This document shows positions 14,934 through 58,761 of a DNA stretch of 64,000 nucleotides, piece by piece. The stretch's first letter is position 1. Each line of letters begins with the position of its first letter. The notes under the pieces were generated by a model. That model searched no databases, was not told where the DNA came from, and worked only from the letters and a program-made list of their open reading frames with translations. The translations under genes and the position numbers were made by a program. The DNA is from Chiloscyllium plagiosum (taxonomy: Eukaryota), in assembly GCF_004010195.1 (NCBI RefSeq), contig NC_057756.1:8938320-9002319 (forward strand), written 5' to 3'.

Positions 14934-15453
14934 AGCTGAAAATGTGTTGCTGGAAAAGCGCAGCAGGTCAGGCAGCATCCAAGGAGCAGGAGAATCGACG
15001 TTTCGGGCATAAGCCCTTCTTCAGGAATGAGGAAAGTGTGTCCAGCAGGCTAAGGTAAAAGGCTGGGAACCCTCCAACCACAAGGGATGAACTCAGATTT
15101 CTCCAGCTTCCTCATTTCCCCTCCCCCCACCTTATCTCAGTCCCAACCCTGGACTCAGCACCACCTTCTTGACCTGCAATCTTCTTCCTGACCTCTCTGC
15201 CCCAACTCCCTCTCCGGCCTATCACCCTCAACTTAACCTCCTTCCCACCTATCGCATTCCCAACGTCCCTCCTCCAAGTCCCTCCTCCCTACCTTTTATC
15301 TTAGCCTGCTTGGCACACCTTCCTCATTCCTGAAGAAGGGCTTATGCCCGAAACGTCGATTCTCCTGCTCCTTGGATGCTGCCTGACCTGCTGTGCTTTT
15401 CCAGCAACACATTTTCAGCTCTGATCTCCAGCATCTGCAGCCCTCACTTTCTC
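14934..15453. mobile_element. fold-back Penelope-derived element with hammerheads on both strands (14997-15024 minus, 15330-15357 plus)
   Basis: ~130-bp inverted arms; ~15-bp TSD ctcataatctgaagg on both sides; nested in an older Penelope-like copy starting near 14590. Confidence 0.8.
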
Positions 15454-16362
15454 CTCATAATCTGAAGGTGTTGAACTCAGGATTGAGCCCAGAAGGCTGT
15501 AAAGTGTCACGATGAGATGTTGTCCCTCTAGTTTTCACTGTGGTTCACTGGAACACTGCAGCGTGCCGAGGACAGGCAGTGGAGCATGTAAAAACAGTGA
15601 CTGCAGATGCTGGAGACCAGATTCTGGATTGGTGGTGCTGGAAGAGCACAGCACTTCAGGCAGCATCCGAGGAGCTTGCTGTGTTAGAATGACCCGCTCT
15701 GGTTCATTCATTTTGTGACTCTCCCATTCTCACAGGGAGAGAGGGGGGAGGAATGAGGGATCCGGGTGTCGAACCCTGTCGGGAAAAGCCAGGTCAAAGC
15801 TGCTTTTCCCCTGAAGGGGTTGGAGTGAGACACTGATCCGGGTGGGGACTCCCGGAAAACTGCGGGTCCAGAGCCGGGGAGTTGGGAGGAGGTGAGACCC
15901 AGGGGATTGATCCCTCCCATCTCACAGTACAATGTGGGTCAGTCTGTAACAAGCTCCTCCCCCCCCGGAAGTGGCGCCAGTTTTAAAGACCAGGACAGAG
16001 AGAGAGAGAGGGAGAGAATCCAGGGGGACATTGCAGTATCGGCTCTGGGCTGTATCTGAGACACGATCCGCTCTCCCTCCAACGTGGAGTTTTACCAAAT
16101 GTTTCTCAGCAGCTTCTCGGTCTCCTGTCAGTGTCTGACCCTGATCCTGATCGCAGTCCCGGTCCCGGTCCCGGTCCCGGGAAAGGAGCTGCAGGTACTT
16201 ACTGTCAGTGTCTCCCACCCGGGGGACACCGAGGGAGGGAGGGGGATCTGGGGAAACTTTCCGGGCAGTGAATCTGTTGGAAAGGGACTGACTGTTTTCT
16301 TGTTGCAGCGACACAGCTCCCAGAAACTACTCCCCCCGCTGCTGCTGCTAAATGTTGTTGCT

Positions 16363-16702
16363 TTTCTTTTAATTTCAAAAATATACTTTATTCATAAAAA
16401 AATCTTTGTGTATATACATCGTCTCAAACGCAGTTCGGTTCTGCACAGTAGCACATCAAACAAACAAACATTGGAGTTTGACTCTATCCAGACAAACCAA
16501 ATACCTCTCTTACTCACACAGGATTATATTTACATGCGTTGAGGCATTAGGAAAGCCCAATAACTGAATGGACCCTCATTTAACATCTGCAGAAATTCCT
16601 CAGACGGTGGTCTTTGCCCACTGCTCCTTGTTCTGGAAGACCAACAGGTTTCGGGCTAACCAAAGAGCATCTTACACCGAGTTGATGGTCCTCCAGGTAC
16701 AG
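16363..16702 (-). mobile_element. L1/Tx1 3' end inserted in the leader exon of paralog A
   Basis: The minus strand ends in aataaa plus an A-rich tail; matches 10725-10770; imperfect TSD atgttgttgct/atattattgct. Confidence 0.7.
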
Positions 16703-17877
16703 ATATTATTGCTGTTTCAGGTCAGTGCTGTGAGTGCTGGGACATTTCAGCAGGGATCAAAGGCTGGGGGTGGGGGGAATCAGGAATTCCTCTTGCTTTA
16801 AGGTGCTGTGTGGGCTGCAAGTGGACCCACTGAGGGAGTGGGACACAGTAGGCTCACATTACACACCGTGATCATGAGAGGGAGCTGAAAGGAAGGCACT
16901 TAATGTCTTCAGATTAACCCCTGGGATGGGAACAGTGGCACCTTGACACTTAACAACACTCAGTGACTTCAGGAGGGGAGACTGGGATCCACTGGCACTG
17001 GGATGGGTCTTCAGCAGTGGGATCAGGAATCTAGGACAACCCTGAGAACAAACAACTGTGACTTAAAGAGCATGAGGTATGGGGCATCAGGACTGGGGAC
17101 TGGGCTTTGTGTCCTGGGAGGTGGCAAGTTCTGAGTGTACTGGCGGGAAGAGGGGGCGGAAATTAAGGTCAACAGGTTAGTGGTGGAGGGTGGTGAGGAT
17201 CTACATTGTCTCGGCCCCTTTCACACCATCAGCTTCTGCCTCACCCCTGTATGGTGCACTCATCCATGACTGTCCTCACAATCTGTCCACAACACCTTTC
17301 ACAGTGAATCCCCACCTATAAAGACACACAACCTTTCCTGTCTTTAGATTTCAGTGTCAGGATTCTGCTCCACCTCACATCGTGCCCCTGCTCCATCTGT
17401 GATTCCCCCGCCCCCCAGGGGGGAGAGAGATGTGACCAATATCCTGATATATCCTCCCAGCGTATGTTCCAATGCAAAACATGTGATTCAAAGTGCTGTC
17501 CAGCTGCTCAGTGCTGACAAACATCCAGCACAAGCTGCTTTTAGTTGAAGACCCTCAATGTCTGAGCTTTAACCTTCCCCCAGAAATGAAAGCAGTGAGT
17601 TACTGATCAGAGCTTCTTGTAAATCCAGCATCGCAGTGTAACCATGTGAAGCTTGGGATGTAATGTACCAGCAGGGAGGTTCTATCTGTGGATAAATCCT
17701 TTCAATCTTTTCCAGGTGACTCGCCTGTCCCAGTTTCTGGGTTCCTTGGGGAGCAGGTTGTGCTGCCTTGTACCTACAAAGGGAATGTCCCAGTCTCTGA
17801 TCTATGGGTAATGTGAGGGAGGACAAACCAAGAGTGAAACTGTACAAAAGTTTGTCTATGGGAGTAATGATTTGAGA

Positions 17878-18584
17878 AGATAATTGTGAGATGTTGCATT
17901 TTGGTAAGACAAATCAAGACAGGTTTTAAACAGTTAATGGTGGGGCACTGAGAGTGCACAGATAGACAGGATGGTGAAGAAGGTGTTTAGCACGCTTGCC
18001 TTCATTGGTCAGATCATTGAATATAGAAGTTGGGATGTCATGTTATGTCGGTACAAAGCATTGTTGCGACCACTTTTGGAATACTTTATACAATTCGAGT
18101 CATCCTGCTATGGGAAGTGTGTTATTAAACTGCAGCGGGTGTAAAAAAGACTGACAAGGATATTATTGAGATTGGAGGGTTTGAGTTATAAGGATTGTCT
18201 GGATAGACTGGGACGTTTTCCCAAAGTGTCAGAGGCTGAGGGGTGATCTGAAAGAGCTTAATAAAATCATGAGAGTATAGATAAGGTGAATAGCCAACAC
18301 CTTTTCCCCAAAGAAGAGGAGTTCAGAACTAGAGGGCAGAGGTTTAAGGTTAGAGGGGAAGATTTTCACACACAGGTTGGAGTGTACACGGAACAAGGAA
18401 GTGGTCAAAGCGGTACAATTGCAACATTTAAAAGACACTTGGACAGATACATAGATAGGAAACATTTAGAGGGATATGGGCCAAATACAGGCAAATGGGG
18501 AGAGTTCAGTTTGGGGAAATTGCTCAGCGCGGATGATTTAGGCCGAAAGTCTGTTTCCATGGTGTTTGACTCTATGGCTCTATA
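17878..18584 (+). mobile_element. CR1 3' fragment inserted in the IgV exon of paralog A
   Basis: IgV sequence ..gatttgaga resumes as aacaagacccacagttc.. after the CR1 gactctatggctcta tail. Confidence 0.85.
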
Positions 18585-18842
18585 AACAAGACCCACAGTT
18601 CAGAAACAGAACATAACTTTCAAAGATCAACTGGAATATGGCAACTGGTCAGTTCTGATCTCTGACCTCAGGGAGACAGACCAGGATGAGTATCAGTGTC
18701 ACGTTTACAGCTGTAGAGTTATAGTCTGAGGAAACTGCTCTTGGTCAACTCTCTGTAACAGCTGAGAGATTTGTTTCGGTATTCTGTATTTAATCTCTGA
18801 GTATGGTGATGGTAGTGCAAGGATTATATTACTAGATGAGTA

Positions 18843-23232: not shown

Positions 23233-23239
23233 TCACGTT

Positions 23240-25690
23240 TGTCTTCAGCTTGGACACTGCCTTAGGAGTGATGGAGCAGGAGGAGTCTGGAACAAGGACC
23301 CCCGCTGGGCTCTGTGCAAGTTTCCAGCTCAGACACAGGTACAGGAATGATAGTGGAGGAGGAGTCTGGAACAAGGACCCCGCTGGGCCCTGCACATGTT
23401 TCCAGCTCAGACACAGCCACAGGAATGGTAGAGGAGGAGGGGTCTGGAACAAGGACCCCACTGGGCCCTGTGCAAGTTTCCAGCTCAGACACACAGCCAC
23501 ACGAATGGTGGTGGAGGAGTCTGGAACAAAGACCCGGCTGGGCCCTATGCAAGATTCGAGCTCAGACATAGTCACAGGAATAGTAGTGGAGGAGGAGTCT
23601 GGAACAAGGGCCCCGCTGGGCCCTGTGCAAGTTTCCAGCTCAGACACACAGCCACACGAATGGTGGTGGAGGAGTCTGGAACAAAGACCCGGCTGGGCCC
23701 TATGCAAGTTACCAGGTCAGCCACAGCCACAGGAATGGTAGTGGAGGAGGGGTCTGGAACAAGACCCCTGCTGGGCCCTGGGCAAGCTTCCCACTCCGAC
23801 ATAGCCACAGGAATGGTAATTGAGGAGGGGTCTGGAACAAGGACACCTGCTGGGCCTTGCACATGTTTCCAGCTCAGACACAGCCTTAGGAATGGTGGCG
23901 GAGGAAGAGTCTGGAACAAGGACCATGCTGGGCCATATGCATGTTTCCAGGTCAGACACAGCCACAGGAATGGTAGTGGAGCAGGAGTCTGGAACAAGGA
24001 CCCCCGTTGGGCCCTGTGCACGTTTCCAGCTCAAACACAGCCACAGGAATGGTAGTGGAGGTGGGGTCTGGAACAAGGACGCCTGCTAGGCCCTGTGCAA
24101 GGTTCCAGGTTAGACACAGCCACAGGAATGGTAGTGGAGGAGGGGTCTGGAACAAGGACGCCTGCTAGGCCCTGTGCAAGGTTCCAGCTCAGACACAGCT
24201 ACAGGAATGGTGGTGAAGGAGGGATCTGGAACAAAGACCCCGCTGGGCCCTATGCAAGCTTCCAGCTCAGACAAATCCACAGGAATGGTAGTGGAGGAAC
24301 GGTCTGGAACAAGGACCGCATGCGCCCTGCACATGTTTCCAGCTCAGACATAGCCACAGGAATGGTGGTGGAGGAGGGGTCTGGAACAAGGACCCCACTG
24401 GGCCCTGTGCAGGTTTCCAGGTTTGACACAGCCACAGGAATGCTAGTGGAGGAGGGGTCTGGAACAAGGACCCCGCTGGACCCTGCACATGTTTCCAACT
24501 CAGACATAGCCACAGGGATTGTCATGGAGGAGGGGTCTGGAACAAGGAATCCACTGGGCCTTGTGCACGTTTCCAGCTCAGACACAGCCACAGGAATGGT
24601 GGTGGAGGAGGGGTCTGGAACAAGGACCCCGTTGGGCCCTATGCAAGTTTCCAGCTCAGACACAGCCACAGGAATGGTAGTGGAGGAGGGGTCTGGAACA
24701 AGGACCCCGCTGCGCCCTGCACATGTTTCCAGCTCAGACATAGCCACAGGAATGGTGGTGGAGGAGGGGTCTGGAACAAGGACCCCGCTGCGCCCTGCAC
24801 ATGTTTCCAGCTCAGACATAGCCACGGGCTGGTCCTGGAGGAGGTGTCTGCAACAAGGACCTCACTGGGTCTTGTGCACGTTTCCAGCTCAGACACAGCC
24901 ACAGGAATGGTAGTGGAGGAGGGGTCTGGAACATGGACCCCACTGGGCCCTGTGTAAGTTTCCAGGTCAGACACAGCCACAGATGGAAATGTGTTGCTGG
25001 AAAAGAGCAGCAGGTCAGGCAGCATCTAGGGAACAGGAGAATCGACGTTTCGGGCATTAGCCCTTCTTCAGGAATCACAGGAATTATGAAGAAGGGCTAA
25101 TGCCCGAAACGTCGATTCTCCTGTTCCCTGGATGCTGCCTGACCTGCTGCGCTTTTCCAGCAACACATTTCCATCTCTGATCTCCAGCATCTGCAGACCT
25201 CACTTTCTCCTCAAAGACACAGCCACAGGAATGGTAGTGGAGGAGGGGTCTGGAACAAGGACCCCGCTGGGCCCTGTGCAAGTTTCCAGCTCAGATACAA
25301 TCACAGAAATGGTGATGGATGAGGGGTCTGGAACATGGACCCCGCTGGGCCCTGTGCAAATGTCCAGCTCAGATACAACCACAGGAATGGTGATGGAGGA
25401 GGGGTTTGGAACAAGGACCCGCTGGGCCCTGTGCAAGTTTCCAGGTTCGACACAGCCACAGGAATGGTACAAGAGCAGGAGTCTAGAACAAGGACCCCCG
25501 CTGGGCCCTGTGCAAATTTCCAGCTCAGACACAGCCACAGGAATGGTAGTGGAGGAGGAGTCTGGAACAAGGACCCCGCTGGGCCCTGTGCAAGTTCCAG
25601 GTTTGACACAGCCACAGGAATGGTGGTGGAGGAGGAGTCTGGAACAAGGACCCCGCTGGGGCCTGTGCAAGTTTCCAGGTTAGACATGGC
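23240..25690 (+). repeat. 78-bp minisatellite, about 28 units
   Basis: Unit cagctcagacacagccacaggaatggtagtggaggaggggtctggaacaaggaccccgctgggccctgtgcaagtttc; occasional 1-bp indels. Confidence 0.95.
24983..25214. mobile_element. fold-back Penelope/hammerhead mini-element inside the minisatellite
   Basis: 14-bp TSD agacacagccacag (24969-24982, 25215-25228); inverted arms; intact hammerhead core on minus at 25044-25071, plus-strand core mutated (ATGAAGA). Confidence 0.85.
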
Positions 25691-25745
25691 ATTGAAGCAG
25701 AGGCTGAGGAGCAGCACTATACAAACTCCAGCTGATATCCAGCAG

Positions 25746-25965
25746 GAGGTAAAAACAATGGCTGCAGATGCTGGAAACCAGATTCTGGATCAGTGGTGTT
25801 GGAAGAGCACAGCAGTTCAGGCAGCATCCAATGAGCAGCGAAATCGATGTTTCAGGCAAAAGCCCTTCATCAGGAATTCCTGATGAAGGGCTCTTGCCTG
25901 AAACGTCGATTTCACTGCTCCTTGGATGCTGCCTAAACTGCTGTGCTCTTCCAGCACCACTAATC
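25746..25965. mobile_element. fold-back Penelope/hammerhead mini-element
   Basis: 14-bp TSD ctgatatccagcag (25732-25745, 25966-25979); palindrome centred on GAATTC 25874-25879; hammerhead core 25880-25907 (+). Confidence 0.85.
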
Positions 25966-27309
25966 CTGATATCCAGCAGCAGACAGCAGAGTCAAAGAGT
26001 TTGAGGTCAAGTATGAAGTAAACCATTCTACAAAGAACAATTGGATAAAATATCAAAGCTATTGCTGCAATATTTTGTATTTAAACAGAGATACAACAAG
26101 TCGCTGGAGAGTGGTGACTCTTTGCGAATAACATGCAAAACAATACTTTCTACTTTTTTTTTACGTGACAATAAATCTAACCTAATATAAATTTAATCTA
26201 CAGCTGTTAATACCTTCTCCATCCCAATTAAAATTTATTCAAGTATAATACAATCTTCATCTCTGATATTCAGACCTCCCTCATCCTCCTCGACACTGAA
26301 TACAGATGCAAAGTACTTGCTTCAAACTTTATCACCTCTTCTCGTTCAAAATACAGTTTCCAACTTTGGCCTCTCCAGTGTTCTACTCTTTCCCTGGTTA
26401 TCTTCTTCGACCTAATGTTCCTAAAGGTGACTTTAGATTTACCTGTAATTTGCTTACCAATGTTATATCATGTGCCCTCTTGGTTTGCCTCTGTTCTGTT
26501 TAAGTAGCTCCTGCACTTATTCTCCTCTGGGAGACCTGGTGTTTTGAGTCCTTGATCTCTACCATAAGCTTCCATTTTATCCTAATCCAACCCTTTATAT
26601 TCTTCGACATCTAGGGTTCACTGCACGTTTTTCCCATCCTTCACTTTCACAGACATATTTTGGCCCAGTACTCTTACTATGTCCTTGTTGAAATACTCTC
26701 ACTGGTTGGATTTGGATTTTCCTCATGTCGTAGCTCCCAGCCTACTTTGCATGTTCTTATGCTAAAGTTTGCCTTCCCCGATTTAGAAGTGTTATTTTTG
26801 CTCTTTTTCATAACTACCTTAAATCTCACTGAGTTCTGATCACTAACACCAAAATACCCTCTGACTGACAGTTCCACTGCTTGCCCAGTTTCATTTCTGC
26901 AATCTAGACCAGCACTGTCCCCTCTCTTCTGGAATTTTCTGCTTGCTAGATTAAAAAGCCCTCTGAGATACATATTAAAAATCCTGCTTATACTAACACT
27001 TTCACGTTTTGCTTATTCCAGTTAATATTTGCAAAGCTTAAATACTCTGCTATTAGTATATCACTTTTACACTTTAAAATTAGCCTTCATATCTAGCCTG
27101 ACTGTTTGGGGACTATACTGCACCACCAGCAAGTGATGGTCTCCTTTTTGTTCTTAAGTTCTTTATACTAGATGAGCCAAAGTCCCCTTTTGTGCTGTTT
27201 GGGTGACTCAGGATGGCCTCAATTGAGGAAACTTTTCAATCAGCATTGACCCTGCCCCTGTCAGTCAGCATTGGCCCCGTTCATTGTCAATCAGCCCTGG
27301 CCCCACCTT

Positions 27310-27660: not shown

Positions 27661-28859
27661 AATTAGCACCTATTCCACCTCCTGTCAATCGTCACTGATC
27701 CCGCAGTCTGTCAATCAAAAGCAAGAAGTGATATAGAGTCAGAAAGTGTAGAAAGCATCTGGGTGGAGTTGAAGAACCATAAAGAAAATAAAACAATGAT
27801 GGTAGCTGTGTACAGGCCTCCTAGTAGTAGTCAGGATGTGGGGAAGAAAATAAATCCAGAGATGGAAAAGTCATGTAAGAAAGGCAGTGTTACAAGAACC
27901 AAGGGTGGGAGGGCTTCAGTCTGCAGATGGACTGGGAAAATCAGATTGAGAGTGGATCTCAAGAAAGGGAATTCATAGAATGTCTACAAGATGGTTGTTT
28001 GGAGCAACTAGTGTTCAGGGATGTGTGGGTCAGGTGTATTAAGTGTAGAGCAAAAAGGTAAGGGAATGGTTCTGGGTGGGTTACTCTTCAGAGGGTCGGG
28101 GTGTACTTGTTGGGTCAAAGGGCCTGTTTCCACACTACAGAGATTTGAGGGATCGGGTATTGAGCACTGGGTTGAGAATGTGGTGCTGGAAAAGTGCAGC
28201 TGGTCAGGCAGCATCCGAGGAGCAGGAGAATCGACGTTTCAGGCAAGAGCCCTTCATCAGAACTGAACTGGGATCAGGTTTCTGAGGAATACTATACTCA
28301 GAATTATGAGTCTGAGAGGGCATGGAGATGTTTCCACTCGTAGAAGAGGTTGGGACCTGAGATGAGGAGGAATTTCTTTAGTCAGAGGGTGGATCTGTGG
28401 AACTCCTTGCGGCAGAGGATGTGGAGGTGAAGTCACTGTGTGTATGTTAGACGGATATGGATAGGCTTTGAAGAAGGGTCATTAACTCTGCTTTCTCTTC
28501 ACAGGTGCTGCCAGCTGCTGAGCTTTTGCAGTAATATTTCTAACCTTTTTTGAAAAGGTAGGTTCTTGATTGGCAAGCAGAAAAACTGTCATGGGGATGA
28601 AACAAACTTGTTGGGCTGAATGGCCATATTTCTGCCCCAATATCTTACATTTAAAAGTGATTGTTGATTCAATCAGTCAAAAATCACACGATACTAGGCT
28701 AGTCCAGCAGGTTTCGGAGGAGCTCCGAAAGGTTGCAGTTTCAAATAAACCTGTTGGACTATAACCTGGTGTTGTGTAACTTTTAACATTAACAATCAGC
28801 ACGAACCATATCCTGTCCAATTCAGTCTCTGCTTTCTTTAAACATCTCCGGGCCCTTGT

Positions 28860-31479: not shown

Positions 31480-31824
31480 GTAACTCACCTTTCCCGGTTT
31501 CTGGGTACCTGAGGGAGCAGGTTGTGCTGCCCTGTACCTACAAAAGGAATGTCCCAGTCTCTGATTTACAGATAATCTGGGGGACACTTAAGAAGGAAAT
31601 TGTCCACAAGTTTGTGAATGGGAGCGATGATTTAAGAGAACAAGACCCACAGTTCAGAAACAGAACAAACCTGTTCAAAGATCAACTGGAACAAGGCAAC
31701 TGGTCAGTTCTGATCTCTGACCTCAGGGAGACAGACCAGGCCGAATATCAGTGTCAGATTTACAGCAGGATGGAGGATCACTTTCGATGGGAGGGAGTTG
31801 TTTCTGTCCATCTCTCTGTCACAG
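31480..31824 (+). CDS. gene B exon 3, B7/butyrophilin-type IgV domain 1
   Basis: VVLPCTY..IIW..QDPQFRNRTNLFKDQLEQGNWSVLISDLRETDQAEYQC; 345 nt, phase 1-1, canonical splice sites. Confidence 0.92.
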
Positions 31825-31959
31825 GTAAGAGATTTCTGTTCCTGATATGATGTTTAATCTCTGATTTTAAATGGTGCATTTTTTGTTGACTAGTCTGGAG
31901 TCTCAATACTTCTGCAGTTTGTTTCACACACTGTACTAAACACATGATGTTTCCTTTAG

Positions 31960-32978: not shown

Positions 32979-33323
32979 GTGACTGGCCTGTCCCAGTTTC
33001 TGGGTTCCTTGAGGAGCAGGTTGTGCTGCCCTGTATCTATAAAGGAAATGTCCCAGTCTCTGATTTACAGGTTATGTGGGGGACGTCCAGGAGTGAAATC
33101 GTACACAAGTTTGTGAATGGGAGCGATGATTTGAGAGAACAAGACCCACGGTTCAGAAACAGAACAAACCTGTTTAAAGATCAACTGGAACAAGGCAACT
33201 GGTCAGTTCTGATCTCTGACCTCAGGGAGACAGACCAGGATGAATACCAGTGTCAGATTTACAGGAAGGTAGCTGCTCACTTTGATTGGGAACAGACTGA
33301 ACATGTTCATCTCTCTGTAACAG
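32979..33323 (+). CDS. gene B exon 5, B7/butyrophilin-type IgV domain 2
   Basis: 345 nt, phase 1-1; both Cys, the Trp and D-x-x-x-Y-x-C are intact. Confidence 0.92.
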
Positions 33324-44000: not shown

Positions 44001-44179
44001 TAGAACATAGAAGAATACAGCGCAGTACAGGCCCTTTGGCCCTCGATGTTGCGCCGATCCAAGCCCACCTAACCTATACTAACCCACTATCCTCCATATA
44101 CCTATCCAAAACTTTCCCTCAGTATAAGTGCCTCAGAAGATAATATCTCTAGTACATAGGCTTAATGTAGGACCCAGAA

Positions 44180-45870
44180 GAAAGTGAGGACCACAGATGC
44201 TGGAGATCAGAGTCGATAGTGGGGTGTTGGAAAAGAACAGCAGGTCAGGCAGCATCTGAGGAGCAGGAAGTTCAATGTTTCGGGCATAAGCCCTTCATCA
44301 GGAATGAGGCTTGTAGGCCAGGGATTTGAGGGATAAATGTGAGGGGGGTGGGGCTGGGGGGGAAGGTAGCTGAGAATGCAATAGGTAGATGAAAGTGGAG
44401 GAGAAGGTGATAGGTCGGAGAGGAGAGTGGAGCGGACAGACGAAAAAGATGATGGACAGGTCAAGAGGGCATTGCAGAGTTGGAGGCTTGGGACTGGGAT
44501 AAGGTGGGGGGGAGGGGAAATGAGGAAACTAGGTGAAATCCACATTAATCCCATGTGGTTGCAGGGTCCCAAGGCAGAAGATGAGGTGTTCTTCCACCAT
44601 GGGTTAGGTGGTTAGGATTTGGTGATGGAGGAGGCCCAGGACCTGCATGTCCTTGACAGAGTGGGATGGGGAGTTGACATGTTCAGCCACAGGGCAGTGA
44701 GGTTGGTTGGTATGGGTCTCCCAGAGATGTTCTCTGAAATGATCCTCAAGTTGGTGTCCTGTCTTCCCGATTTAGAGGAGACCACATCAGATGCAACGGA
44801 TTCAGTAGGTGACATTTGTGGGTACAGGTAAATTCTATCAGATGTGGAAAGATCCTTTGGGGTGTTGGATGGAGGTGGTGGGGGGAGAAAAAAAAAAGTG
44901 TGGGCGCAAGTTTTGCACTTCCTGCGGTGTAAGGGAAAGGTGCCGGGAATGAGTTGAGGGCTGGTGGAGGGTGTGGATCTGACAAGGGAATCACGGAGGG
45001 AATAGTCTCTCTGGAACGCTTATAGGGGTGGGGAGAGAAATATATTCCTTGTAGTGGGGTCTGTTTGTAGGTAGTGGAAGTGGTGAAGGATGATGCAATG
45101 TTCTCAGGATGACCAATTCTACCAAAGAAAATGGTAGAATGGCCTCCTTCAAAGACCACAATTTCCCCTCCCACGTGATCAATGATACCCTCCAGTGAGT
45201 CTCCTCCACTTCCTGCACTTCCACCCTTGAACCCCACCCATCCCAATACAACAAGGACAGAACCTTTCAGGTCCTCACCTTCCACTCCACCAACCTCTAA
45301 GCATCGCATCACCCTCCGCTATTTCCACCACCTCCACCGCTCCACCACTATCCCTGGGACACCCGCACTAACCAACCTCACCACCCAGTGGCTGAACATT
45401 TCAACTCCCCCCTCACTTCACCAAGGACATGCAGGTCCTGGGCCTCCTCCATCTTCAAACCCTAAATACCCGACGCCTGGAGGAAGAATGTCTCATGTTC
45501 CGCCTTGAGACCCTGCAACCATATGGGATTAATGTGGATTTCACTAGTTTCCTCATTTTACTTCCCCCACCTTATCCCAGTCCCAAGTCCCCAACATGGC
45601 ACCGCCCTCTTGACCTGTCAGTACTTCACCCTTTTATCTATCTGCTCCACCCTCCTCTCAGTTCTCTCACCTTCTCCCCCACCTTCATCTACCTACTGCC
45701 TTCCCAGCTACCTTCCCCCCAGCACCCACCCTCCCCCTTCCCATTTATGTCTCCACCTCCCTGGCCCACAAGCCCCATTCCTGATGAAGAGCTTATGCCC
45801 AAAAATGTCAATTGTCCTGCTCCTTGGATGCTACCTGGCCTGCTATCCTTTTCCAGAACCCCATTCTTGA
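44180..45870. mobile_element. Penelope-like element in inverted (tail-out) arrangement
   Basis: Minus arm ~44180-45100 and plus arm ~45110-45870 both contain GIY-YIG C-terminal remnants and a pLTR; degenerate direct repeat cttaatgtaggacccagaa / cttagtacaggacccccagaa on the flanks. Confidence 0.75.
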
Positions 45871-47939
45871 CTTAGTACAGGACCCCCAGAATATAACATA
45901 TCCCATTACATTCACCCTCACACCTCTGAGTATATCACTGCTGTGTTGGACCTTCCCAAATATAAAACATTCCTCAATCTGACATCCCTCAGTGTGGGAT
46001 CCCTATATTACATGTCCCTTGGTGTAGTACTCCGCAATGTAATGTTTCTCAATTTAACATCACCAATCACACTTTCCAGCATTAGGTCAATAGCCTTTGA
46101 ATGTTGTGACATTTCAAGTGCTCATGCAAGTACATTCTAAAGGTTGCGAGGTTATTCACCTCAACTAACCTCTCAGGCAGTGCATTCCAGACCCCAATCA
46201 CATTCTGGGTAAAACTGTTTTCCCTTCCAGTCCATGATGGTGGTGGAGAAGGGCTTGTGTGTACAGCTCATCTGCTTCAACTTTACTTTTTCTTTTGTCA
46301 CCCCTCACTTTCCTTTTATTTTAAACTTAGCCTGTCCTGAGCTTGGATAGCATCAGCAGCAGGAAGAGCCCAGTGCTCAGACCTCAAGTGGTCTCAAGCC
46401 AGGTCCAGGGGTCAGGCCTCAAGCACACCCAGAGCACAGAAGAGTGGGCCCAGAACACAGAGTGGAGCGAATCCGTACTTACTTTTCTGGAGCTAACACA
46501 GGTCCTGGAATAAGAGGCTGCCACATCTGGAGAGGCAACATTGGCGAGGCAGGCCCATCAGCAAAAGATGAGGATCAGCAACTTCATTGTTGGTGGATTT
46601 CAACACTAGCAATGGCGGAATAGAATCATGGCAACATCAATGAGTGTCCTAGGAGCAAGAGATGCGGCTCTGACATGGATTGATTCAGAGCAGGAGTATC
46701 GGTTCAGCAGCAACGATGGCACCTGAGGAGTGGCAACTTCAATGTTCGTTGGGTCTGGTGTAGATGGCAGCAAAGTTGTGGCGGACAGATGGCAGTGCAG
46801 GCATCATTGACGGTGATGAACTGACTCAGGACTGATGGACTCTCTTCAAGCTACATCTTTCTTTTTTATCCTTATTCTTCAATTATTCAAAAGGGCACCA
46901 TTTTGTGGTGACAAATAAAAGCTTTTCACTGTATTGCGTTGTATCCTTATTGTCAAATACACATTACAATCGAATCAAATCCCTGCTCAACCTCCTGCTT
47001 CTCATCTTAACATTTGTTTCTTAACTGCTCTCTGGGTATCCAAGGATGAGCAATAAATGTTGGCCTCAGGCACAGATGCCCACATCCCGTGAATGAATAA
47101 AAACATTAAGAAATGCCAAAGCAAGTTGGGAACTCAATGGGCAACAGAAAGAGGGGGCTTAGAATATTTAAAATGTCAAATATTGAAAATAGATGCAAGG
47201 AAACTGAGGGATGAATTAAACAATTATCTTATAAAGTAATTTCATCTAAATTCAATGCTGCTGTTTGGGAAACACAACAGCTCTCTCTCTCTATTGGCTC
47301 TGCCCATCTGAAAGGGCAAACTGGCAGTTGGCGGGAATTATGTCAATCAGAAGCCACCGCATCCCTCCCCGATAATAACCAGTGTGTAGTTCTATGATTG
47401 ACAAGCCGGAGCCAAATCTGAGTGGCCACAGCACTAACCAATCACCGAGTCAAACACTTTTCTACAGGCCAGATTGGGCACTCATTGGCCATCATCGTTA
47501 ACATATCACCGGGCCGACCTCTACTTGACAGATCATACCATAATCTGATTGACCACTGGATTTTGACGCCGCCCCCTTGGCATGTGCGGAAACCTTTGGA
47601 GGAAAAGAAATGGTGAAAATTTGAAAAGCCAAACTGAATGGCCAATTTCAGAAAGTTCAATGTATTGGAGAGAAACCTATATGAAGGAAGCTCAGGGAAG
47701 CAAATGATTTGGGGCGAGAGGAATGTTTAATGGGATGGGATAAGCATTGGATTTATTCTAAAGGAGTATTTTTTTATTTAAGAATTTATTGTCAGTGGTT
47801 GAAACTTCTCAGAGGAGGTGAACAAGTCTATTTTCTCTTCTCGTCAGTCCCACATTCTTCAATAAAGCCTCCCAAACCCACAACCTCCAGCCTCTCTGAG
47901 AAGCAAAACACAGCAGGAACATGGGAATGCCATCATCTC

Positions 47940-48763
47940 TGTTAGAAACAAACTCAATAAAATTTTAGACGAGACCAACAAATCTGGAAACAAGACAATT
48001 TATTACGGACTTGCAAGTACGGGCTGCAACTGCACAAAGCAATTGAGCGAATTAGACTTGGGTTAGTTTACAATTATACGAGCTGGAAGTTTTTGTTGCA
48101 AACGTTTCGTCCCCTGTCTAGGTGACATCCTCAGTGCTTGGGAGCCTTCTGTGAAGCGCTTCTGTGGCGTTTCACAGGAGGCTCCCAAGCACTGAGGATG
48201 TCACCTAGACAGGGGACGAAACGTTTGCAACCAGCTCGGCGAACAGAACCACAGCAACGAGCACCCGAGCTACAAATCTTCTCACAAACTTTACAATTAT
48301 ACCTTTGAGCTGAGTGAGGTCACCCCTCCAGACTCCTAATTACCAAATCTCTCTTACTCAGCAATACAACTGCCCATCTATGCTCCACTCTTATTACTTC
48401 CCCTTCCCCATGTTGTCAACCTTCCTCCCTGTTAGTGCTGACATTTTCTTTATTTTGTCGATAGTACCTCAAGATATAGTTTAACATTTTGTATCAATAC
48501 TGCTGGTACATACCATTTTCCATACAACTTTATATCATTTTTGTACAGCTCAGACATTTTAGTTATCTCAGTTTTTTTGCTGAAAACTTATTTTAAAAGA
48601 GTTAACTTGCTTATATTATTCTCAAGAATTAGTATTTAATTAACCATAATAATAAGTAAAGATACACTTCCCTAAGTACCTGCAGAGTTAATAATTTTTC
48701 TGCTGGACCCCTTTTCTTCATGTTCTTTTATATCTGCAAAAACACTTCTTTCCATTTCTAACT
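47940..48763 (-). repeat. ERV 3' LTR (contains a 210-bp insertion)
   Basis: Matches 56049-56654; AATAAA on minus at 47999-48004; purine tract aaaagaaatgggggagg immediately upstream (48764-48780). Confidence 0.9.
48080..48289. mobile_element. fold-back double-hammerhead mini-element (third family) in the 3' LTR
   Basis: 13-bp TSD tttacaattatac; absent from the 5' LTR; cores at 48192-48225 (+) and 48101-48134 (-): CTGAGGA-t-gtcacct(agac)aggggac-GAAA-CG-TT. Confidence 0.9.
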
Positions 48764-48871: not shown

Positions 48872-50147
48872 CTAAGTCTGCCTTTTCTTTTCAAACTCTA
48901 CGAGTAATCTATTACTCTCTCTTTCTTGTGTGTTTAATGTGGTCATGATCATCATTGATTGGTGACCTCCCAAGGACATTATCAACTTATTCATTATCCA
49001 CTTTAACACATTAAATCCTATTATTAGTCCTACTATTATTAGTAAGACATAAATGCCTAAATTAGCTAACCATTTTCCCCAACTGGTCACCCCATTCCCA
49101 TCTCTCATCTTTTTGAGGTTTATTCTCAACTTCTTTAATATTCTTTATTTTTTTCTTTACTATTTCTGCCTTATCTTCTACTAGGGAATTGGCGTCTGGG
49201 ATGAAGGTGCAATTAGTGCACAGGTTTCCCCTTTTTCGGCCAAGAGATAATCTAGAGCCATTCGATTTTGTAAAGCTGTTAATCTTGCGGCAATCATTTT
49301 GGTGGTTATGGCCGATATTTGGGTCTGAGTTTCTTCCATTACATCAGAAGTATTATTAATTAATTTCTCAAGGGCAGCGCCAGTTTATGTATCTCTCCCC
49401 CTGCCCTTGCAGTACCGTAGCTTGGGAATAATGTCCATAACTGACGGTCAGAGACCTCTCGGGTCTTACATTTTACTCCCCCTTTATTTCTCAGGTTGTG
49501 TTCATGTTTTTCTAATCGGAGGCGAGGAATTATATAAGCAATAGCAGCCACTCCAACTTTTCTTGTTTTGAGGCAATGACTCATCAACATCAAAACATGC
49601 ATTTCTTCCTATACATTCGGTTATTCGAATGTATTTCTCCCCGGGAATAAATAGATAGGCCTTCCGGCCACATACCCAATATGTTCCATTCAATATTTGG
49701 GGAACGGTCTTGGCCGTGGCTTGGCTGGTGTAGACACAAGATGATTTTCCTAATTGGAAGGGTGCAGCATTATTCCGATTACAAAAGCAGGTGGTATTTA
49801 TTGCTCCTTTCAGTGGGGTAATTATAAAGTCAACGATAATACCCTTGGTTCTCGGAGCTGGTCTAGGGAACCACCCTGCAAAGTTATATTTATCCTTTTC
49901 GTGACTCCACATTGTTATTTGTGCCTGAATTAAATTGTTGCACATCATACACTTCCTTTTTGGTAAGTGGTATTACTGAGGTGGGGATTCCAGATTCACC
50001 ATGGTGTGGGACCTCTGCACAGACCCAACAATTAGTAAGTCCTTTTTGTTCAGCATAATTTTGGCATAGTGTAGTAAAGTGATTTCTCCAGTTTCCTCGA
50101 ATAGTTAGTATTACTATTGTTATAATATTATACCAATACTCTCCCAT
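48872..50147 (-). pseudogene. env: ERV envelope (gamma-type), frameshifted
   Basis: Signal-like N-terminus, CWVC motif, ISD LQNRMALDYLLAEKGETC, TM LGIYVLLIIVGLIIGFNVL. Confidence 0.9.
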
Positions 50148-50276
50148 TTCTAACAACTATCTACCTTCCTATCTATCTGTCTTATTTCTTTAGGCGCCAG
50201 GAAGAGGTGAGTCCACACAGCCCTTACAATCAATAACAATATATCAGCAAACTTTAAAAGAGTCTTTTTTCTCAAT

Positions 50277-53200
50277 TCATTCTTTCTTTCGCAGCTTAAT
50301 TTTCAGAGGATTTTCTGTAGGATGGGTGTGCCACTCCGCAGGAGTTCACAGGACCTTTGACACGAGTGTGATGGCTCCACTCTTTCTCAGCAGGGTTAGA
50401 AGAGTTAGGAACGGTCCCTCCCAACTTGGGTGTAGTTTGGTATCCTTCCAGGTTTTAATCAAGACCTAATCACCTGGTCGTATACGGTGTACTGCAAACT
50501 CTAGTGGTGGTGTTTGTACCAACAAGCCTTTGTTCCCAAGAACAGATAATGAAGAACCAAGTGCCATAATATAATTTTTCAAAAATTTATCATTAAACTC
50601 AGCTGTAGGTACCTCTCCTTTCCCTCCTAGAAATGGTAGTCCAAACATCATTTCATAAGGGGAAAGACCAATATCGCACCTTGGGCAGTTTGGACACGTA
50701 ATAGTACAATAGGCAAACATTTGGTCCATGGTAATCGAGTCTCTATGACTAATTTAGATAATTGTTTCTTCAAAGTCTGATTCATTCATTCCACATGTCC
50801 GGAGGAGAGTGGGTGCCAAGGGGTGTGAAATTCCCAAGAGATTTCTAATCCTGCCATTACTCCTTGTAGGATACTAGAAGTAAAATGGCTACCTTGATCT
50901 GAATTTATATTTTCCACTATTCCATATCTTGGAATAATATGTTTGAGAAGGGTTTTTACCACTCCTTTTGAGGTGACTGACGACATTGGGAATGCTTCTA
51001 CCCACTCTGTTAAATGGTCTACTAAGACCAACAGGTATTTCTGCTTTCCCACTGGGGGTAGTTCAGTGTAGTCTACTTGTATACTTTGGAAGGGTCTCAC
51101 CCCTGGGTTTCTTCCTCCTTTGGGTATTTCCCTTATTATTTTCTTATTAATCTTCCGGCAAGTTGTACATCCTATGCATATTTGTTTTGCCAGTGTATAG
51201 ATTCCCTTGCATCCATATTTCCTTAACACAATGTCGCACATAGCTTGGGAGCCCCAATGACTACCTTGGTGTAAAGTAGCTAGGATGTTTCTCATAACTG
51301 GTTTACTCACCAATTCCCTCCCATCTGGCAAGATCCATTTTCCTTCAGTTGTCTTATTGGCCCCTATTTCCTGAAATTCTTTTTCTTCTTCCTCTATGTA
51401 CACGGGGTTCACAGAAGAAGAATCAACTAGGGGGCATTAGTACCTGCATTCTTGTTACTGTGTGTTTCATAGCTGCTTCTTTGGCTATTTCGTCCACTAG
51501 CCTGTTTCCCTTTGCTTCTAGTGTGTTCCCTTTCTGGTGTCCGGGTACATGGACTATAGCTATCTCCCGGGGTAATTTGAAGCTCCCCAATACTTGTCCT
51601 ATCAATTCTTCATGCACTAATTCCGTCACTCTACTATTGATTAGTCCCTGTTCTTGCCATATCTTTCCAAAGATATGAACTACCCCGTAAGTATACTTAG
51701 AGTCAGTATAAATTGTTCCATCGCGATTCTCTAAGTGTTTTAAAGCTTGGTTCAATGCATACAATTCACAAGTCTGTGCTGACCATGCGTTAGGTAGCCG
51801 GTCAGCTTCCACTATTCGGTTCTCATTACCGTCCACTACTGTGTACCCATTGCATCGTTTTCCTTCCACTATTCTTGATGACCCAGCTATAAATAATCTG
51901 TCTCCTTCCTGTAAAGGAATGTCTCTCAGGTCATGCCTAATCTTAGTCTGATATTCTATGATATCTAAACAGTCATGTTCTAGTTCTCGTTTGTCTCGAG
52001 GTTCTCCCTTCTATAAGAAGGTAGCTGGGTTTAGACAGGTGTCTGTTGCTAATACAAGGTCATCTTTTTCCATCAGAATGGCTTCGTATTTTAAAATTCG
52101 TGAATCTGTTAACCATCTTCCTGCCTTTTGGTTTAACACAGTTCTGACCTGATGGGGGGTACTAACTACTAGTGCTCCTCCAAAAGTGAGCTTCCGACTT
52201 TCTTCTACCAATATGGCAGTCGCTGCTACTGCCTGTATACATTCAGGCCATCCTCTTGAAACTGGGTCCAAAACTTTGGACAGGAAAGCTATAGGTTGTC
52301 TATTTCCTCCTCCTTTCTGAGTTAATACTCTTAAGGCTGCTCCATCATTTACTGTTACAAAAAGGTGAAATGGTTTCTCTTGTGAGGGAAGGGCCAAATC
52401 TGGAGTTTGTATTAAACTATGCTATAACTCGCGTAATTTTTCTTTTTCTTCTTCTGTCCAGTGCAATTTTTCATGTTCGGACTCAGTCAATTTATAATAT
52501 AGCCCCTTTGTTTTCTGAGCATACGACTCTATCCATAATCTGCAATAGCCCATTAACCCTAGAAACTTCCGAAATTCTCGTTTGGTTTCCAGGAGGGGCA
52601 GTTCTACTATCCCTTGAATTTTGTCGGGGCTAATACGTCTAGTTCCTTTGCTAATAAGGTGTCCTAAGTATTTCACCTCTTTATCTGCATATTGCTATTT
52701 ACTCCTAGTTACTCTTAACCCCTGTTGTCCTAGGAAATTTAACAACCCATTGGTAGCTGAGCTTACATCATTTCTATTTTGTCCTGACACGTAGATCATC
52801 TACGTATTGCAACAGTGACGTTCCCCGAGGCATTTTATGTTGTTCCAGGACTTGTTCCAGTACTTGCCCAAATAAATTAGGTGATTGTGTGAATCCCTGG
52901 GGAAGTACCATGCATCGGAATTGTTGTTTTCTGCCACTGTATGGATTTTCCTATTCAAAAGCAAATATATCATGACTCTCTGGGGCTAAAGGACAAGCCC
53001 AGAATGCATCTTTTAAATCTATCACACTAAACCAACAGTGGTTGCACGGTATCTTACTAAAAAGGGGTATATGGATTAGGCACCACTGGGTGGCGTGTCT
53101 GAACCAGTCGATTTACTGATCTGAGATCTTGTACTAAATGGCTTCCGAACTGGTAGTATTGGAGTATTAAAGGGTGACATGCATGGTTCCAATAACCCTT

Positions 53201-54331
53201 CTTTTGCGAGGGAGTCTATTACTGGTTGTAGACCCTTGCGTCCCTCTAATGAAACTGGATATTGTTTAATTCTTACTGTTTTATTTTCTTGTGACAGCAT
53301 AATTACAATGGGATTAATGATGCTGGAAGAGCACAGCAATTCAGGCAGCATCCGAGGACAGGCAAAATCGACATTTCGGGCAAAAGCACTTCATCAGGAA
53401 TAAAGGCAGAGAGCCTGAAGCATGGAGAGATAAACTAGAGGAGGACATTGACAGGATGCAGAGCTGGGCTGAGAAGTGGCAGATGGAGTTCAAGTTGGAA
53501 AAGTGTAAAGTGATTCACTTTGGAAGGTCAAGTTTGAATGCAGGGTTAAAGGCAGGATTCTTGGCAGTGTGGAGGAACAGAGGGATCTTGGGGTCCATGT
53601 CCATAGGTCTCTCAAAGTTGCCGCCCAAGTTGGTAGGGTTGTTAAAAAGGCGCATGGTGTGTTGGCTTTCATTAGCAGGGGATTGAGAATAAGAGCCGCA
53701 AGATTATGCTGCAGCTCTATAAGGCCCTGGTCAACCACACTTGAAATGCTGTATTCTGTTCTGGTGGCCTCATTATAAGAAGGATTTTGAAACTGTGGAC
53801 ATATTCCTGATGAAGGGCTTTTGCCCGAAACGTCGATTTTGCCTGGCCTCGGATGCTGCCTGAATTGCTGTGCTCTTCCAGCACCACTAATCCAGAACAA
53901 TTGGATTAATGTTTAAATAACCTGTGTTTCCAGTTCTTGCCCGCACATTAGGATTTGTCTGCTCTTCGGCACTGGTCGTTAATCTATTCATCGTTACAGC
54001 TACCGAATTGTTCTCAACTCTGATCTTTAAATTTAGTAAAATTATCATATCTCTACCTAAAAGGTTGCTAGCGACATCAGGGATATATAATAATCGTTCC
54101 GTTATTTCTTCGTTATTTACTTTTATTAAAGTTGGTTCGAAAACAGGCACTAGGAATTCTTCCCCTTTTATTCCAGAAATCTTGAGACTTTTGTTAGTTA
54201 ACTTAACACCACTAGGTCTAAAGCTTAGGGATGATCGGGCTGCTCCCATCTATTTCCTCTCCCTTAGGCCCCACCTTCAAATTTATCAAGGGTTCCTGGC
54301 GGGTTTCAGGAAGAAGGAACCCCTGACTTCC
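50277..54331 (-). pseudogene. pol: ERV pro-pol (PR, RT, RNase H, IN), disrupted
   Basis: LLGRD, LPQGF, YVDD at 52795-52806, IYTDSKY, HQGSH..CTTC, QVDYTE / SDQGSHF / SSGHVE. Confidence 0.92.
53320..53896. mobile_element. fold-back Penelope/hammerhead element enclosing a CR1 fragment, inserted in pol
   Basis: 15-bp TSD acaat(g/t)ggattaatg (53305-53319, 53897-53911); hammerhead 53807-53834 (+); CR1 sequence ~53440-53785. Confidence 0.85.
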
Positions 54332-55817
54332 CTATTCTTCATCAAAAGTCATTAACGAAACTGCTTCTTTTTGTCGCATTAGCTTTGGACAATCTTTCTT
54401 AAAAATGTCCTGTTACTCCACAGTAATAACATCCTGCCGATTGTCTTTTTTATAATCTGTTCTTTGCCTCTCGTCTTTCCTTGTTGCTTTCTGATTCTAT
54501 CTTTCTCTTCACAACTTCCTCAACTGCTGCAACCATTATTTTAGCTTTCTATTTCTGTTTCTCATCTTTTTACATATACTTTCTGTGCTTCATGTAACAA
54601 TTCCTACATCTGTCTCTCACTCCATCCATCTAATTTCTGTAACTTCTTTTGTATGTCTGGCCATGATTTGGTTACGAACTGAACCTTCAAAAGTCCCTGA
54701 GCTACTGGATCATTAGGATTCATTCCTGAATATTTTCTAGTGACTTCTTTTAGCCTTTGCAAGAAAGCTGACGGGGCTTCATCTTTGTCTTGTCTTACTT
54801 CAAAAGCTTTCGTAAAATTTTGGGATCTAGGCGCCACCTCTCTGATTCCTAAAATAACCATCTCTCGAAAGTCCCTCATTTCTCCTCTATCATGTTCATC
54901 CATACCCTTTCATCGTGGGTCTATATTGGGGAATTTGTTTTCAGCTGGTATTACTCCCTTGCCCACAGGGTGTCTCTTTTCCCATTCCCTAAGCACTTCT
55001 AATCTTACCCCTTTCTTCTCCTGAAAATAGTGTCCCCATAATACTCATCAGTTCACCCCATGTACACAAATTCGGTCCCAGGAATTGATTCAACTGTTCT
55101 GTCAATCCTACTGGATCTTCAATCAAACTTTTCATTTCTCTTTTAAAAACCTAACTTTACTACTGGTCAGCGGTGCATTAACATATCAGATTTCACAATT
55201 ACCGACGGGTAATTCTCTAAAGGGGATATATTTGTGCCGATGCCCTGCCTATGTCCCTCTCTTCACTTCTTTTTACTGCTGATCTCATTCTAAATCGGAC
55301 TCAAGAGAAGGTCTTCCCCCGGACCTCTTTCAGGTCCTTGTACCTGAGGGGGTGCTGTGGGAGAGGGAAACGACGGACCATTATTATCATTGTTATATGG
55401 GGGAGGGAGTAAACTTGACAAAGGATCCCAGCGGGAATCCTTTGTTTCCTCATTGCCTTCTTCTGTTCTTGACTTTTTCAGAATTAAAATTTTCGGGCTC
55501 CCTATCAGACAGGCAACGTAGTCAGATTCTTTATAGGAGCACTTATGTTTCCTATTTACATATATATTTAAATCTTGATATAACCAATCCTCGTCAGACC
55601 CATATTTAGGCCAAAATACATTTGGGGCTTTAATGCTTTCCTTAGTCCACTCAAAACAACAAAATTTTATCATTTGTTTTTGGTCTTTTCCTCACGTCCA
55701 AGGATTGTATTTCCAATCTCTTCGCATTTTTCCTAAAGGACTGTCCATTGGGATATAGTCTTCGGCTGTCTCTCTCATGTCTCTTTCTACATCTGAATTG
55801 CTATTCTTATTTCCCAT
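54332..55817 (-). pseudogene. gag: ERV gag, disrupted
   Basis: MGNKNS myristoylation motif, WPKYGSDEDW, PPPY and PTAP late domains, MHR-like VRQDKDEAPSAFLQRL, CYYCGVTGHF..C knuckle; ends DEE-TAG. Confidence 0.9.
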
Positions 55818-56044: not shown

Positions 56045-56048
56045 AATC

Positions 56049-57174: not shown

Positions 57175-58034
57175 AAATCACATAATGAGGTTAGAGTCCA
57201 ACAGGTTTATTTGGAAGTACAAACTTTCGTCAGGTAGCTATTGGGGCAGGATCATAGGACACACACAAAATTTATAGTAAAAGATCAAAGTGTCATACAG
57301 CTGACGCGATGTCTTGAACAAAGTTAGGTCGCTGTAAAGCCTCGCATCACTTAGAATGGGTCGCAGATTTTGAATCATTAATATGTAAATTCCAGAGCAT
57401 CTTTCAAGTCACATTCCCAAGATAATTTAAGGTTAAAAAAAGGTGACACCTCAGTTCAGACAATGCATTAAAGGTGTGAGGTTAGAATCTGTTGCTGTCT
57501 CTGACACACACACACACACACAGACACTTACATATACACCCTCTCACAAGCATATAATCTGTCACACATGTGCACGCATGCACTAATGTACACACACACA
57601 CGTCTATGGGGTGAATTTGCAGATACATTCTATTTTGTTCCAAAAGTACACAATCTGTAGGCAGTCAGTCCATGTGACATTTTGGAAATAGAACCAGTCT
57701 GACTCAAGGTTGGAATACACACAGACTCTAACCTCACATCTTTAATGCACTGTCTGAGCTGAGATATCACCTTTTTTATAAAACCTTAAGTTATCACGGG
57801 AATGTGACTTGAAAGATGTTCTGGGATTTACATATTAATGAATCGAAACCTGCAACCCATTCTAAGTAATTAAAGACTTAACAGCAATCTAGGTTTGTTC
57901 AATACATCACATCAGTTGTATGACACTTTGATCTTTTACGATCAATTGTGTCCTATGATCTTGCCCCATTAGCTATGTGACAAAGAAGCAGTTCTCGGAA
58001 AGCTTGTTCTTCCAAATAAACCTGTTGGACTATA
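57175..58034. mobile_element. fold-back element with ~300-bp inverted arms around a CA-rich spacer
   Basis: 57193-57491 is the reverse complement of 57721-58034; terminus of the gtccaacaggtttatttggaag family. Confidence 0.7.
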
Positions 58035-58036
58035 GC

Positions 58037-58345
58037 AGGTGGCACAGTGGCTGTGGTTAGCACTGCTGCTTCACAGCACCAGGGACACAGGTTCAATCCC
58101 AGCCTCGGGTGACTGTCTTTGGAATTTGCACGTTCTCAGTGTCTGCTTGGGTTTCCTCCGGGTGCTCCGGTTTTCTCCCACAGTCCAAAGATGTGCAGGT
58201 TAGGTGAATTGGCCATGCTAAATTGCCTGCAGTGCTAGGTGCATTAGTCAGAGGGAAATGGGTCTGGGTGGGTTAATCTGAGGGTCGGTCGGTGGACTGG
58301 TTCGGCTGAAGGGCCTGCATCCGTACTATAGGGAATCTAATCTAA
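58037..58345 (+). mobile_element. HE1-like V-SINE
   Basis: A-box TGGCACAGTGG, B-box GGTTCAATCC, V-domain and aatct-repeat tail. Confidence 0.8.
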
Positions 58346-58406
58346 TGATCTGGTGCTGTGTGATTTTCAGCTCCGTCCAACCGACTGACCCCACATGGAC
58401 TCCAGA

Positions 58407-58761
58407 TTCTGGATCAGTGGTGCTGGAAGAGCACAGCAATTCAGGCAGCATCCGACGAGCAGCAAAATCGACATTTCGGGCAAAAGCCCTTCATCAGGCA
58501 GGTCGGACAAGTCCGGACAGGTCAAGGGGATAGTGCGGGCTGGAAGTTTGAAACTCGGATGAGGTGGGGGAAGGGGAAATGAGGAAGCTGTCTCCTCTAG
58601 CTTATCTCTCCACGCTTCAGGCTCTCTGCCTTTATTCCTGATGAAGGGCTTTTGCCTGAAATGTCGATTTTGCTGCTCGTCGGATGCTGCCTGAATTGCT
58701 GTGCTCTTCCAGCACCACTGATCCAGAATCTGGTTTCCAGCATCTGCAGTCATTGTTTTTA
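58407..58761. mobile_element. fold-back Penelope/hammerhead mini-element
   Basis: 17-bp TSD cccacatggactccaga (58390-58406, 58762-58778); inverted arms with hammerhead-like cores. Confidence 0.85.

Follow-up and report, generated by a model that had tools for sequence, protein, structure and literature searches.

Short fold-back inserts with hammerhead motifs on both strands in Chiloscyllium plagiosum as probable insertion products of Penelope-like elements

Six fold-back inserts and their coding relatives

Analysis of a 64,000-nucleotide stretch of the Chiloscyllium plagiosum genome (NCBI RefSeq assembly GCF_004010195.1, contig NC_057756.1, positions 8,938,320 to 9,002,319 of the forward strand; this whole stretch is the window, and coordinates count from its first letter) revealed six short fold-back inserts, each with a hammerhead ribozyme motif in both inverted arms and a target-site duplication (TSD) around it. 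We are highly confident that these inserts are insertion products of Penelope-like elements (PLEs). Insert E1 (14934 to 15453) is a fold-back of 520 bp with a 15-bp TSD (14919 to 14933 and 15454 to 15468). Three inserts are mini fold-backs: E2 (24983 to 25214; 232 bp) has a 14-bp TSD (24969 to 24982 and 25215 to 25228), E3 (25746 to 25965; 220 bp) has a TSD (25732 to 25745 and 25966 to 25979) that reads as 14 bp exact or as 17 bp with one mismatch, and E4 (48080 to 48289; 210 bp) has a 13-bp TSD (48067 to 48079 and 48290 to 48302). The fold-back E5 (53320 to 53896; 577 bp) is flanked by a 15-bp TSD with one mismatch (53305 to 53319 and 53897 to 53911) and the fold-back E6 (58407 to 58761; 355 bp) by a 17-bp TSD (58390 to 58406 and 58762 to 58778). 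A preliminary description of this DNA had listed six inserts with these starts, and all were confirmed, at 210 to 577 bp and with TSDs of 13 to 17 bp (two with or allowing a mismatch; see E3 and E5). Among 3,000 random boundary pairs, an exact 13-mer repeat was found in 7 and a 15-mer with at most one mismatch in 19. The inverted arms measure 65 to 136 nt and are 91 to 97% complementary; the fold of E3 has a z score of -21.3. As had been described, none of the six contains an intact open reading frame (ORF): the final codons of the endonuclease are present in E1, and E5 holds a broken reverse transcriptase (RT) piece resembling that of a long interspersed nuclear element (LINE). E2 sits inside a 78-bp satellite of about 31 copies (23278 to 25687 in the window). 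The host site of E5 is a broken endogenous retrovirus-like remnant on the minus strand (about 49500 to 55700), in which Pfam matches to integrase, RNase H and RT-RNase H lie in separate frames.

The CTGAnGA-stem-GAAA motif of the hammerhead occurred 15 times in the window, compared to a mean of 0.22 (maximum, 2) in 60 Markov controls. It is present and faces outward in 12 of 12 arms, and every insert has a single sense motif on each strand. This agrees with the preliminary description, which reported outward cores on both strands, some of them mutated. Six of the 12 cores are strictly intact and three contain G-U wobbles only (9/12 intact or wobble-only); the three broken ones are those of the right arm of E2 (C3), the left arm of E3 (helix III) and the left arm of E5 (stem II). 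Strictly intact cores on both strands occur only in E1 and E4. Stem I comprises 2 to 4 bp. In families A and B (see below), the predicted cut follows position +28 (C3 being +1), and for helix III to form from the self-complementary ACGU, a dimer would be required. An Rfam scan returned no hammerhead match and 10 sub-threshold matches, eight of them to microRNA models; these lie far below threshold and were discounted. Metagenome scans with two motifs gave no match. The matches in viral (12) and prokaryote (28) scans were taken as chance, with no alignment longer than 42 nt to any element.

The inserts had been described as a single class of elements. Comparison of the arms separated them into three families: A (E1 and E2), B (E3, E5 and E6) and C (E4). 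Family B differs from family A at 15 to 23 positions per 85 nt. Arms inside one element show 1 to 7 differences per 85 nt, arms of different elements show 4 to 7 (family A) or 7 to 15 (family B), and the arms of one insert are usually each other's closest match. This closeness would fit one source RNA or locus for both arms, or later conversion. Lone, non-inverted pieces of families A and B and their relatives are also present in the window.

A longer PLE remnant related to family A is located at 58994 to 60041 on the plus strand. It contains a broken C-terminal RT region, a Cys-rich linker and a GIY-YIG endonuclease (ORF 59119 to 59820), followed by the pseudo-long terminal repeat (pLTR) with hammerhead C3 at 59958 and a tail-less 3' end. 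Positions 59365 to 59757 match GIY-YIG weakly (Pfam, E value 0.0015, below the cut-off). Its protein relatives, both from Chiloscyllium punctatum, are P0001 (80%) and P0002 (72%); P0002 has weak RVT_1 and GIY-YIG matches (below the Pfam cut-offs) and a Cys-rich linker. A PDB sequence search with the endonuclease ORF gave no match. The long arm of E1 is 83% identical to the remnant over 354 nt and runs into the last codons of the GIY-YIG-type ORF. Because this arm enters an ORF with a Cys-rich linker, a weak GIY-YIG match and homology to P0001 and P0002, the family A parent is, as judged from its sequence, an endonuclease-bearing PLE, the GIY-YIG matches being weak. It is probably Neptune-like, judged without a tree by the Cys-rich linker between RT and endonuclease as described in PMC8557442. 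Family B is linked by sequence to the remnant at 7349 to 7806. No second copy or coding parent of family C was found within the window, and E4 is assigned by architecture and motif only.

Ends and centers of the inserts

Relative to hammerhead C3, the 3' ends fall into two classes, tailed (+124 to +129) and tail-less (+78 to +91). The right ends of E1, E2 and E6 and the left end of E3 are tailed; E3 is oriented opposite to the other inserts, with its tailed arm on the left. Five of the six inserts combine one tailed with one tail-less end, and E5 has two tail-less ends. The one-sided 3' extension measures 33 to 42 nt in E1, E2, E3 and E6 and about 52 nt in E4, and it is absent in E5. The earlier statement that one arm is consistently longer is thus valid for five inserts and fails for E5, which has no extension at either end; the asymmetry corresponds to the published PLE tail between two RT start sites. 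All eight tail-less ends examined have 1 to 5 nt in common with the TSD next to them (rough null, 0.0013). With regard to a DNA-level origin, in which the inserts would be DNA transposons resembling miniature inverted-repeat transposable elements or inverted duplications of older copies, the small size, the inverted arms and the target duplications are compatible with it. However, the arms are asymmetric and equal PLE pLTR ends, the TSDs are of unequal length (13 to 17 bp), and a later duplication of an old copy leaves both the clean TSD around the whole hairpin and the tail-less end class unexplained. We consider this origin very unlikely.

On the 5' side, six of the ten family A and B arms stop at most 5 nt upstream of C3, three stop at -44 to -46 (the left arms of E1 and E5 and the right arm of E6, from two families) and one stops at -261. 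In four upstream variants, the base at -4 forms the A of an initiator-like motif, YYAKTY. The -4 ends were not attributed to a 3' splice site, AG being absent there, and by eye no convincing downstream promoter element was seen at the canonical spacing.

All six centers differ from one another. In E1, an antisense tail-less arm (+91 to -44; C3 at 15024) meets a sense arm (-261 to +124; C3 at 15330), which starts in the endonuclease C terminus, at a plain junction (15068/15069). The left arm of E2 stops at -4, and the right arm ends no more than about 3 nt from its core, which is mutated; between them lies a 9-nt filler (25076 to 25084) that occurs 20 times in the surrounding satellite but also mostly repeats the end of the arm. 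Both arms of E3 stop at -4 and overlap by 2 nt (25876 to 25877). In E4, the arms are offset and reach approximately -34 and -24. The arms of E5 reach -46 and -5 and enclose a 358-bp LINE-like RT fragment (53444 to 53801; Pfam RVT_1, E value 0.21), for which the window held no source at the DNA level and only distant relatives at the protein level. In E6, the tail-less left arm extends into an upstream internal segment (58499 to 58592) that the tailed right arm (-46 to +124) does not contain.

Two further fold-backs extend this series. E7 (44176 to 45870), a relative of family A with ORF remnants in both arms, is an older 1.7-kb version of the same architecture. Its ends lie at +126 (left, tailed) and about +90, and a TSD-like pair (44161 to 44175 and 45871 to 45885) has decayed to 12 of 15 matches. 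Its tail-less arm has an internal deletion and carries element sequence absent from the tailed arm. A 95-bp fold-back of a fourth family, D (8526 to 8620), has an exact 13-bp TSD (8513 to 8525 and 8621 to 8633) and a hammerhead core on neither strand, and it served as a control. Its one-sided extension of about 35 nt appears to be a tail, with no second copy in the window. The fold-backs thus range in size from 95 bp without a ribozyme up to 1.7 kb.

To follow the ends genome-wide, sequencing runs were compared at 90% likeness with 15035 to 15560, which represents family A alone. The two DNA-type runs yielded 120,005 and 90,648 contig records, and 2,691 reads came from about 2% of an RNA run, a poly(A) single-cell library unsuited to caps or circles. 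Fifteen of 56 joints are listed, the count of joints being incomplete, and the figures on joints refer to those listed. Depth rises about threefold on entering the bin 15323 to 15340. Position 15326 (-4) is the most frequent 5' loose end listed in each of the three runs that gave data (136 and 113 contigs and 152 reads), and the commonest 3' loose end listed is 15455. Among the top family A loose ends listed, the stop at -44 to -46 does not appear. Flank agreement at the 15326 loose end is 0.33 to 0.42, compared to 0.99 for a subfamily variant at 15245. Because the flanks at 15326 agree so little, many separate insertions must begin at -4. A comparison of breakpoints had been suggested earlier, with shared breakpoints pointing to a propagating family. 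The six centers in the window differ. This comparison is weaker than had been proposed: given that numerous loci whose flanks are unrelated have their 5' ends at -4, shared breakpoints are expected without propagation.

The six listed strand-switch joints have depths of 16.5 to 74.6, like those of single contigs (10.8 to 75.4), at a summed arm depth above 10^7. In five of them the short side ends at 15453 to 15456, so that the sense part of these products may hardly exceed the tail. A head-to-tail joint of 15456 to 15325 (132 bp) was found in 5 and 2 contigs of the two DNA-type runs, possibly from retrozyme-like tandems elsewhere in the genome. The RNA reads occur in both orientations, and 94% of them continue into unlike sequence. 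None of the 2,691 covers the inner left arm of E1 (15035 to 15052) or its right flank (15467 to 15560). A pile-up of RNA ends at the predicted cut (+28/+29) is not listed, which this poly(A) single-cell run cannot settle.

Route of insertion

Each insert consists of two PLE 3' ends placed head to head between TSDs, and each was likely built anew at its landing site, in a single insertion event. We assign a rough probability of 0.8 to dual priming of both cut DNA ends as the main route. The element's endonuclease would make a staggered cut of 13 to 17 nt. One 3' end would then prime at an outer start site and the other at an inner site 30 to 40 nt upstream, at about +125 and +90 from C3; microhomology of 1 to 5 nt would aid priming, and the tail would be left on one side only. 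Each cDNA would stop early or run off the template, often at -4, possibly the 5' end of the RNA, and two run-off products from a -4 start would give the recurring size of 210 to 230 bp. Host repair would finally link the cDNAs at their ends, through microhomology or by means of filler DNA. Priming of both ends of the staggered cut would account for the order in which an antisense tail-less arm is followed by a sense tailed arm, with a TSD on either side. Most likely, the inserts do not give rise to further copies. In LINE-1 twin priming, the second target strand primes on the RNA, which produces an inversion, and the two parts barely overlap. Here, in contrast, both arms copy the same 60 to 500 nt from an almost constant second start site.

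A similar geometry has been described for PLEs. In endonuclease-positive PLEs, an adjacent inverted, 5'-truncated copy and a one-sided tail of 30 to 40 bp are described as typical (Craig et al. 2021, PMC8557442). An inverted, 5'-truncated head-to-head copy is present in all six inserts, in E7 and in the fold-back at 8526 to 8620. The inserts share with this insertion unit, as described in PMC8557442 and PMC3846280, the head-to-head inverted copy, the tail at one end, the TSD and the capture of DNA between pLTRs. They differ in that most units are reduced to the pLTR ends, E4 has an extension of about 52 nt and E5 is tail-less, and their TSDs of 13 to 17 bp compare with 8 to 10 bp given for rotifer PLEs (Arkhipova et al. 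2013, PMC3846280). The inserts are new copies of an already published PLE insertion shape and a clean vertebrate example of it. Of the two origins first offered for them, stereotyped truncated Penelope insertions are supported by the end classes, the differing centers and the GIY-YIG-bearing parent. For the Anolis carolinensis PLE Poseidon (Frangieh et al. 2024, PMC11167929), it is reported that the protein cuts and extends both DNA strands in vitro, two start sites bound the tail, and hammerhead cleavage is not needed. Uncut RNA is the template there, and the copies described here keep the whole hammerhead. The family A parent is more likely Neptune-like, with its Cys-rich linker, and joined inverted products were not reconstituted in that work (PMC11167929). 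The literature search found nothing on these shark families, most subscription journals and repeat databases being outside the search. Among the titles listed, none concerned a fold-back PLE family, those retrieved for twin priming and inversion in PLEs were off-topic, and one hammerhead/Penelope review contained no shark data.

The same geometry would arise by snap-back, in which one cDNA (or an antisense template) folds back, copies itself and joins the other target end. The 4-nt palindrome at the center of E3, the near symmetry of E2 and the strong likeness of the arms within one element suit this route, and self-priming has been proposed for rotifer PLEs from palindromic junctions, as described in PMC3846280. 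However, snap-back cannot make E6 or E7, whose tail-less arms carry element sequence absent from the tailed arms. This sequence points to independent templating of the two arms. The stop near +90 is also unexplained by snap-back, whereas a second start site explains it. We consider snap-back unlikely as the general route.

Several points weigh against dual priming as the common origin. E5 has no tail, and the extension of E4 (about 52 nt) falls outside 30 to 40 nt. Direct comparison of centers covers the six inserts and two more. Genome-wide, the data cover family A alone and 15 of 56 joints; sequence of subfamilies, with loose ends at 15406 to 15415, makes the tail-less end indistinct. Short-read contigs handle perfect palindromes badly, and a repeated -4/-4 center could be missed. 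A pile-up of RNA starts at -4 is not listed, a matter that the poly(A) single-cell run cannot settle. The pile-up of ends at -4 has other readings, such as stem I pairing that conserves this A or the published ATT preference of the endonuclease, and arm similarity could partly reflect conversion between arms. In Drosophila virilis, the start site is described as lying farther upstream, not next to helix I: a 75-bp intron reaches to helix I, and the start precedes this intron by 46 bp (PMC2377424, PMC4209133). Dual priming in one event is described in vitro only as extension of both strands (PMC11167929).

Ribozyme in the hairpin context and further features

Folding predictions were compared for the core within the hairpin and in lone arms. 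Opening the core is predicted to cost 30 to 66 kcal/mol in 12 of 12 strand cases, and the same cost was predicted for co-transcriptional prefixes ending 15 nt past the cut. For three lone arms, the predicted cost is 2.7 to 9.7 kcal/mol. The predicted mean unpaired probability of the core within the hairpin is at most 0.11, and in any read-through RNA of an insert the antisense arm is transcribed first. The sense hammerhead of the hairpin is thus predicted to be sequestered in the duplex with its antisense copy and inactive in cis, and an ambisense unit with a ribozyme foldable in each polarity was not found in any of these 12 cases, given this predicted penalty. Since each strand carries one sense ribozyme only, no monomer is excisable. 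That both strands carry a ribozyme follows simply from the inversion of one end that contains it.

The second origin first offered was a non-autonomous fold-back family that propagates itself through a rod-like RNA with a functional ribozyme in both polarities, as in viroid or retrozyme geometry. In its favor are the three inserts of 210 to 232 bp, the very stable rods, the cores of E1 and E4 intact on both strands and the family A sequence found in RNA in both orientations. On the other side, the inserts belong to three families with six different centers, their tail-less ends show microhomology to the target, hammerhead-free (8526 to 8620) and 1.7-kb versions exist, and the core is predicted to be paired behind an antisense arm transcribed first. 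The RNA reads, from about 2% of one run, also missed the inner left arm and right flank of E1 and mostly entered unlike sequence. Retrozymes, moreover, need tandem direct hammerheads, which define them as described in PMC7229834 and bioRxiv 10.64898/2026.07.22.740005. The six inserts contain no pair of at least two direct-tandem hammerheads, and no hammerhead tandem occurs among the 9 rows listed. The inserts share with non-LTR retrozymes, as described in the same sources, that they are non-coding, hammerhead-bearing, PLE-related and dispersed. Retrozymes, however, are head-to-tail tandems with a ribozyme per unit and form circles (PMC7229834), and the inserts pair head to head and have a single sense ribozyme on each strand. 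We judge this origin to be very unlikely.

The hammerheads resemble the minimal PLE type. In Schistosoma, dual minimal hammerheads about 100 to 700 bp apart on opposite strands are described, and minimal PLE hammerheads are described as showing low, dimer-only cleavage in vitro (PMC4209133). Shared with these are a core without helix III, the palindromic 15.2-16.2, an extra base before stem II (families A and B) and G10.1-C11.1 in most; stem I is only 2 to 4 bp here, and sharks are not named in the available text of PMC4209133. An unlikely variant of the PLE origin is that the stump from -4 to +126 is a short transcript of its own, begun at the initiator-like A and with both priming sites, moved in trans by the Penelope protein in the manner of a short interspersed nuclear element (SINE). 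If so, its insertions would yield hairpins, and the rare 132-bp head-to-tail tandems would be retrozymes at birth.

The very many young copies in a shark-type genome are a natural data set for the steps of PLE integration, including dual priming versus snap-back and why cDNAs stop just before the hammerhead. Screens for hairpins and ambisense ribozymes will catch such stumps as false viroid-like or microRNA-like matches.

Further fold-backs of family D were observed in the window. The one at 57192 to 58034 has arms of about 300 nt (80% alike) and a CA-rich center, and its right end enters a repeat that by eye resembles a tRNA-type SINE; a search for its TSD found none. A tiny decayed one at about 28678 to 28790 has a palindromic center and a flanking repeat of just 7 bp. 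Several long inverted matches between LINE-like remnants lie at 5370 to 6967. Exon-like ORFs for immunoglobulin (Ig) domains, belonging to a host gene cluster, are located at 1228 to 1686 (Pfam Ig), 31449 to 31850 (Pfam V-set) and 32927 to 33358, the last of which is by eye a near copy of the second.

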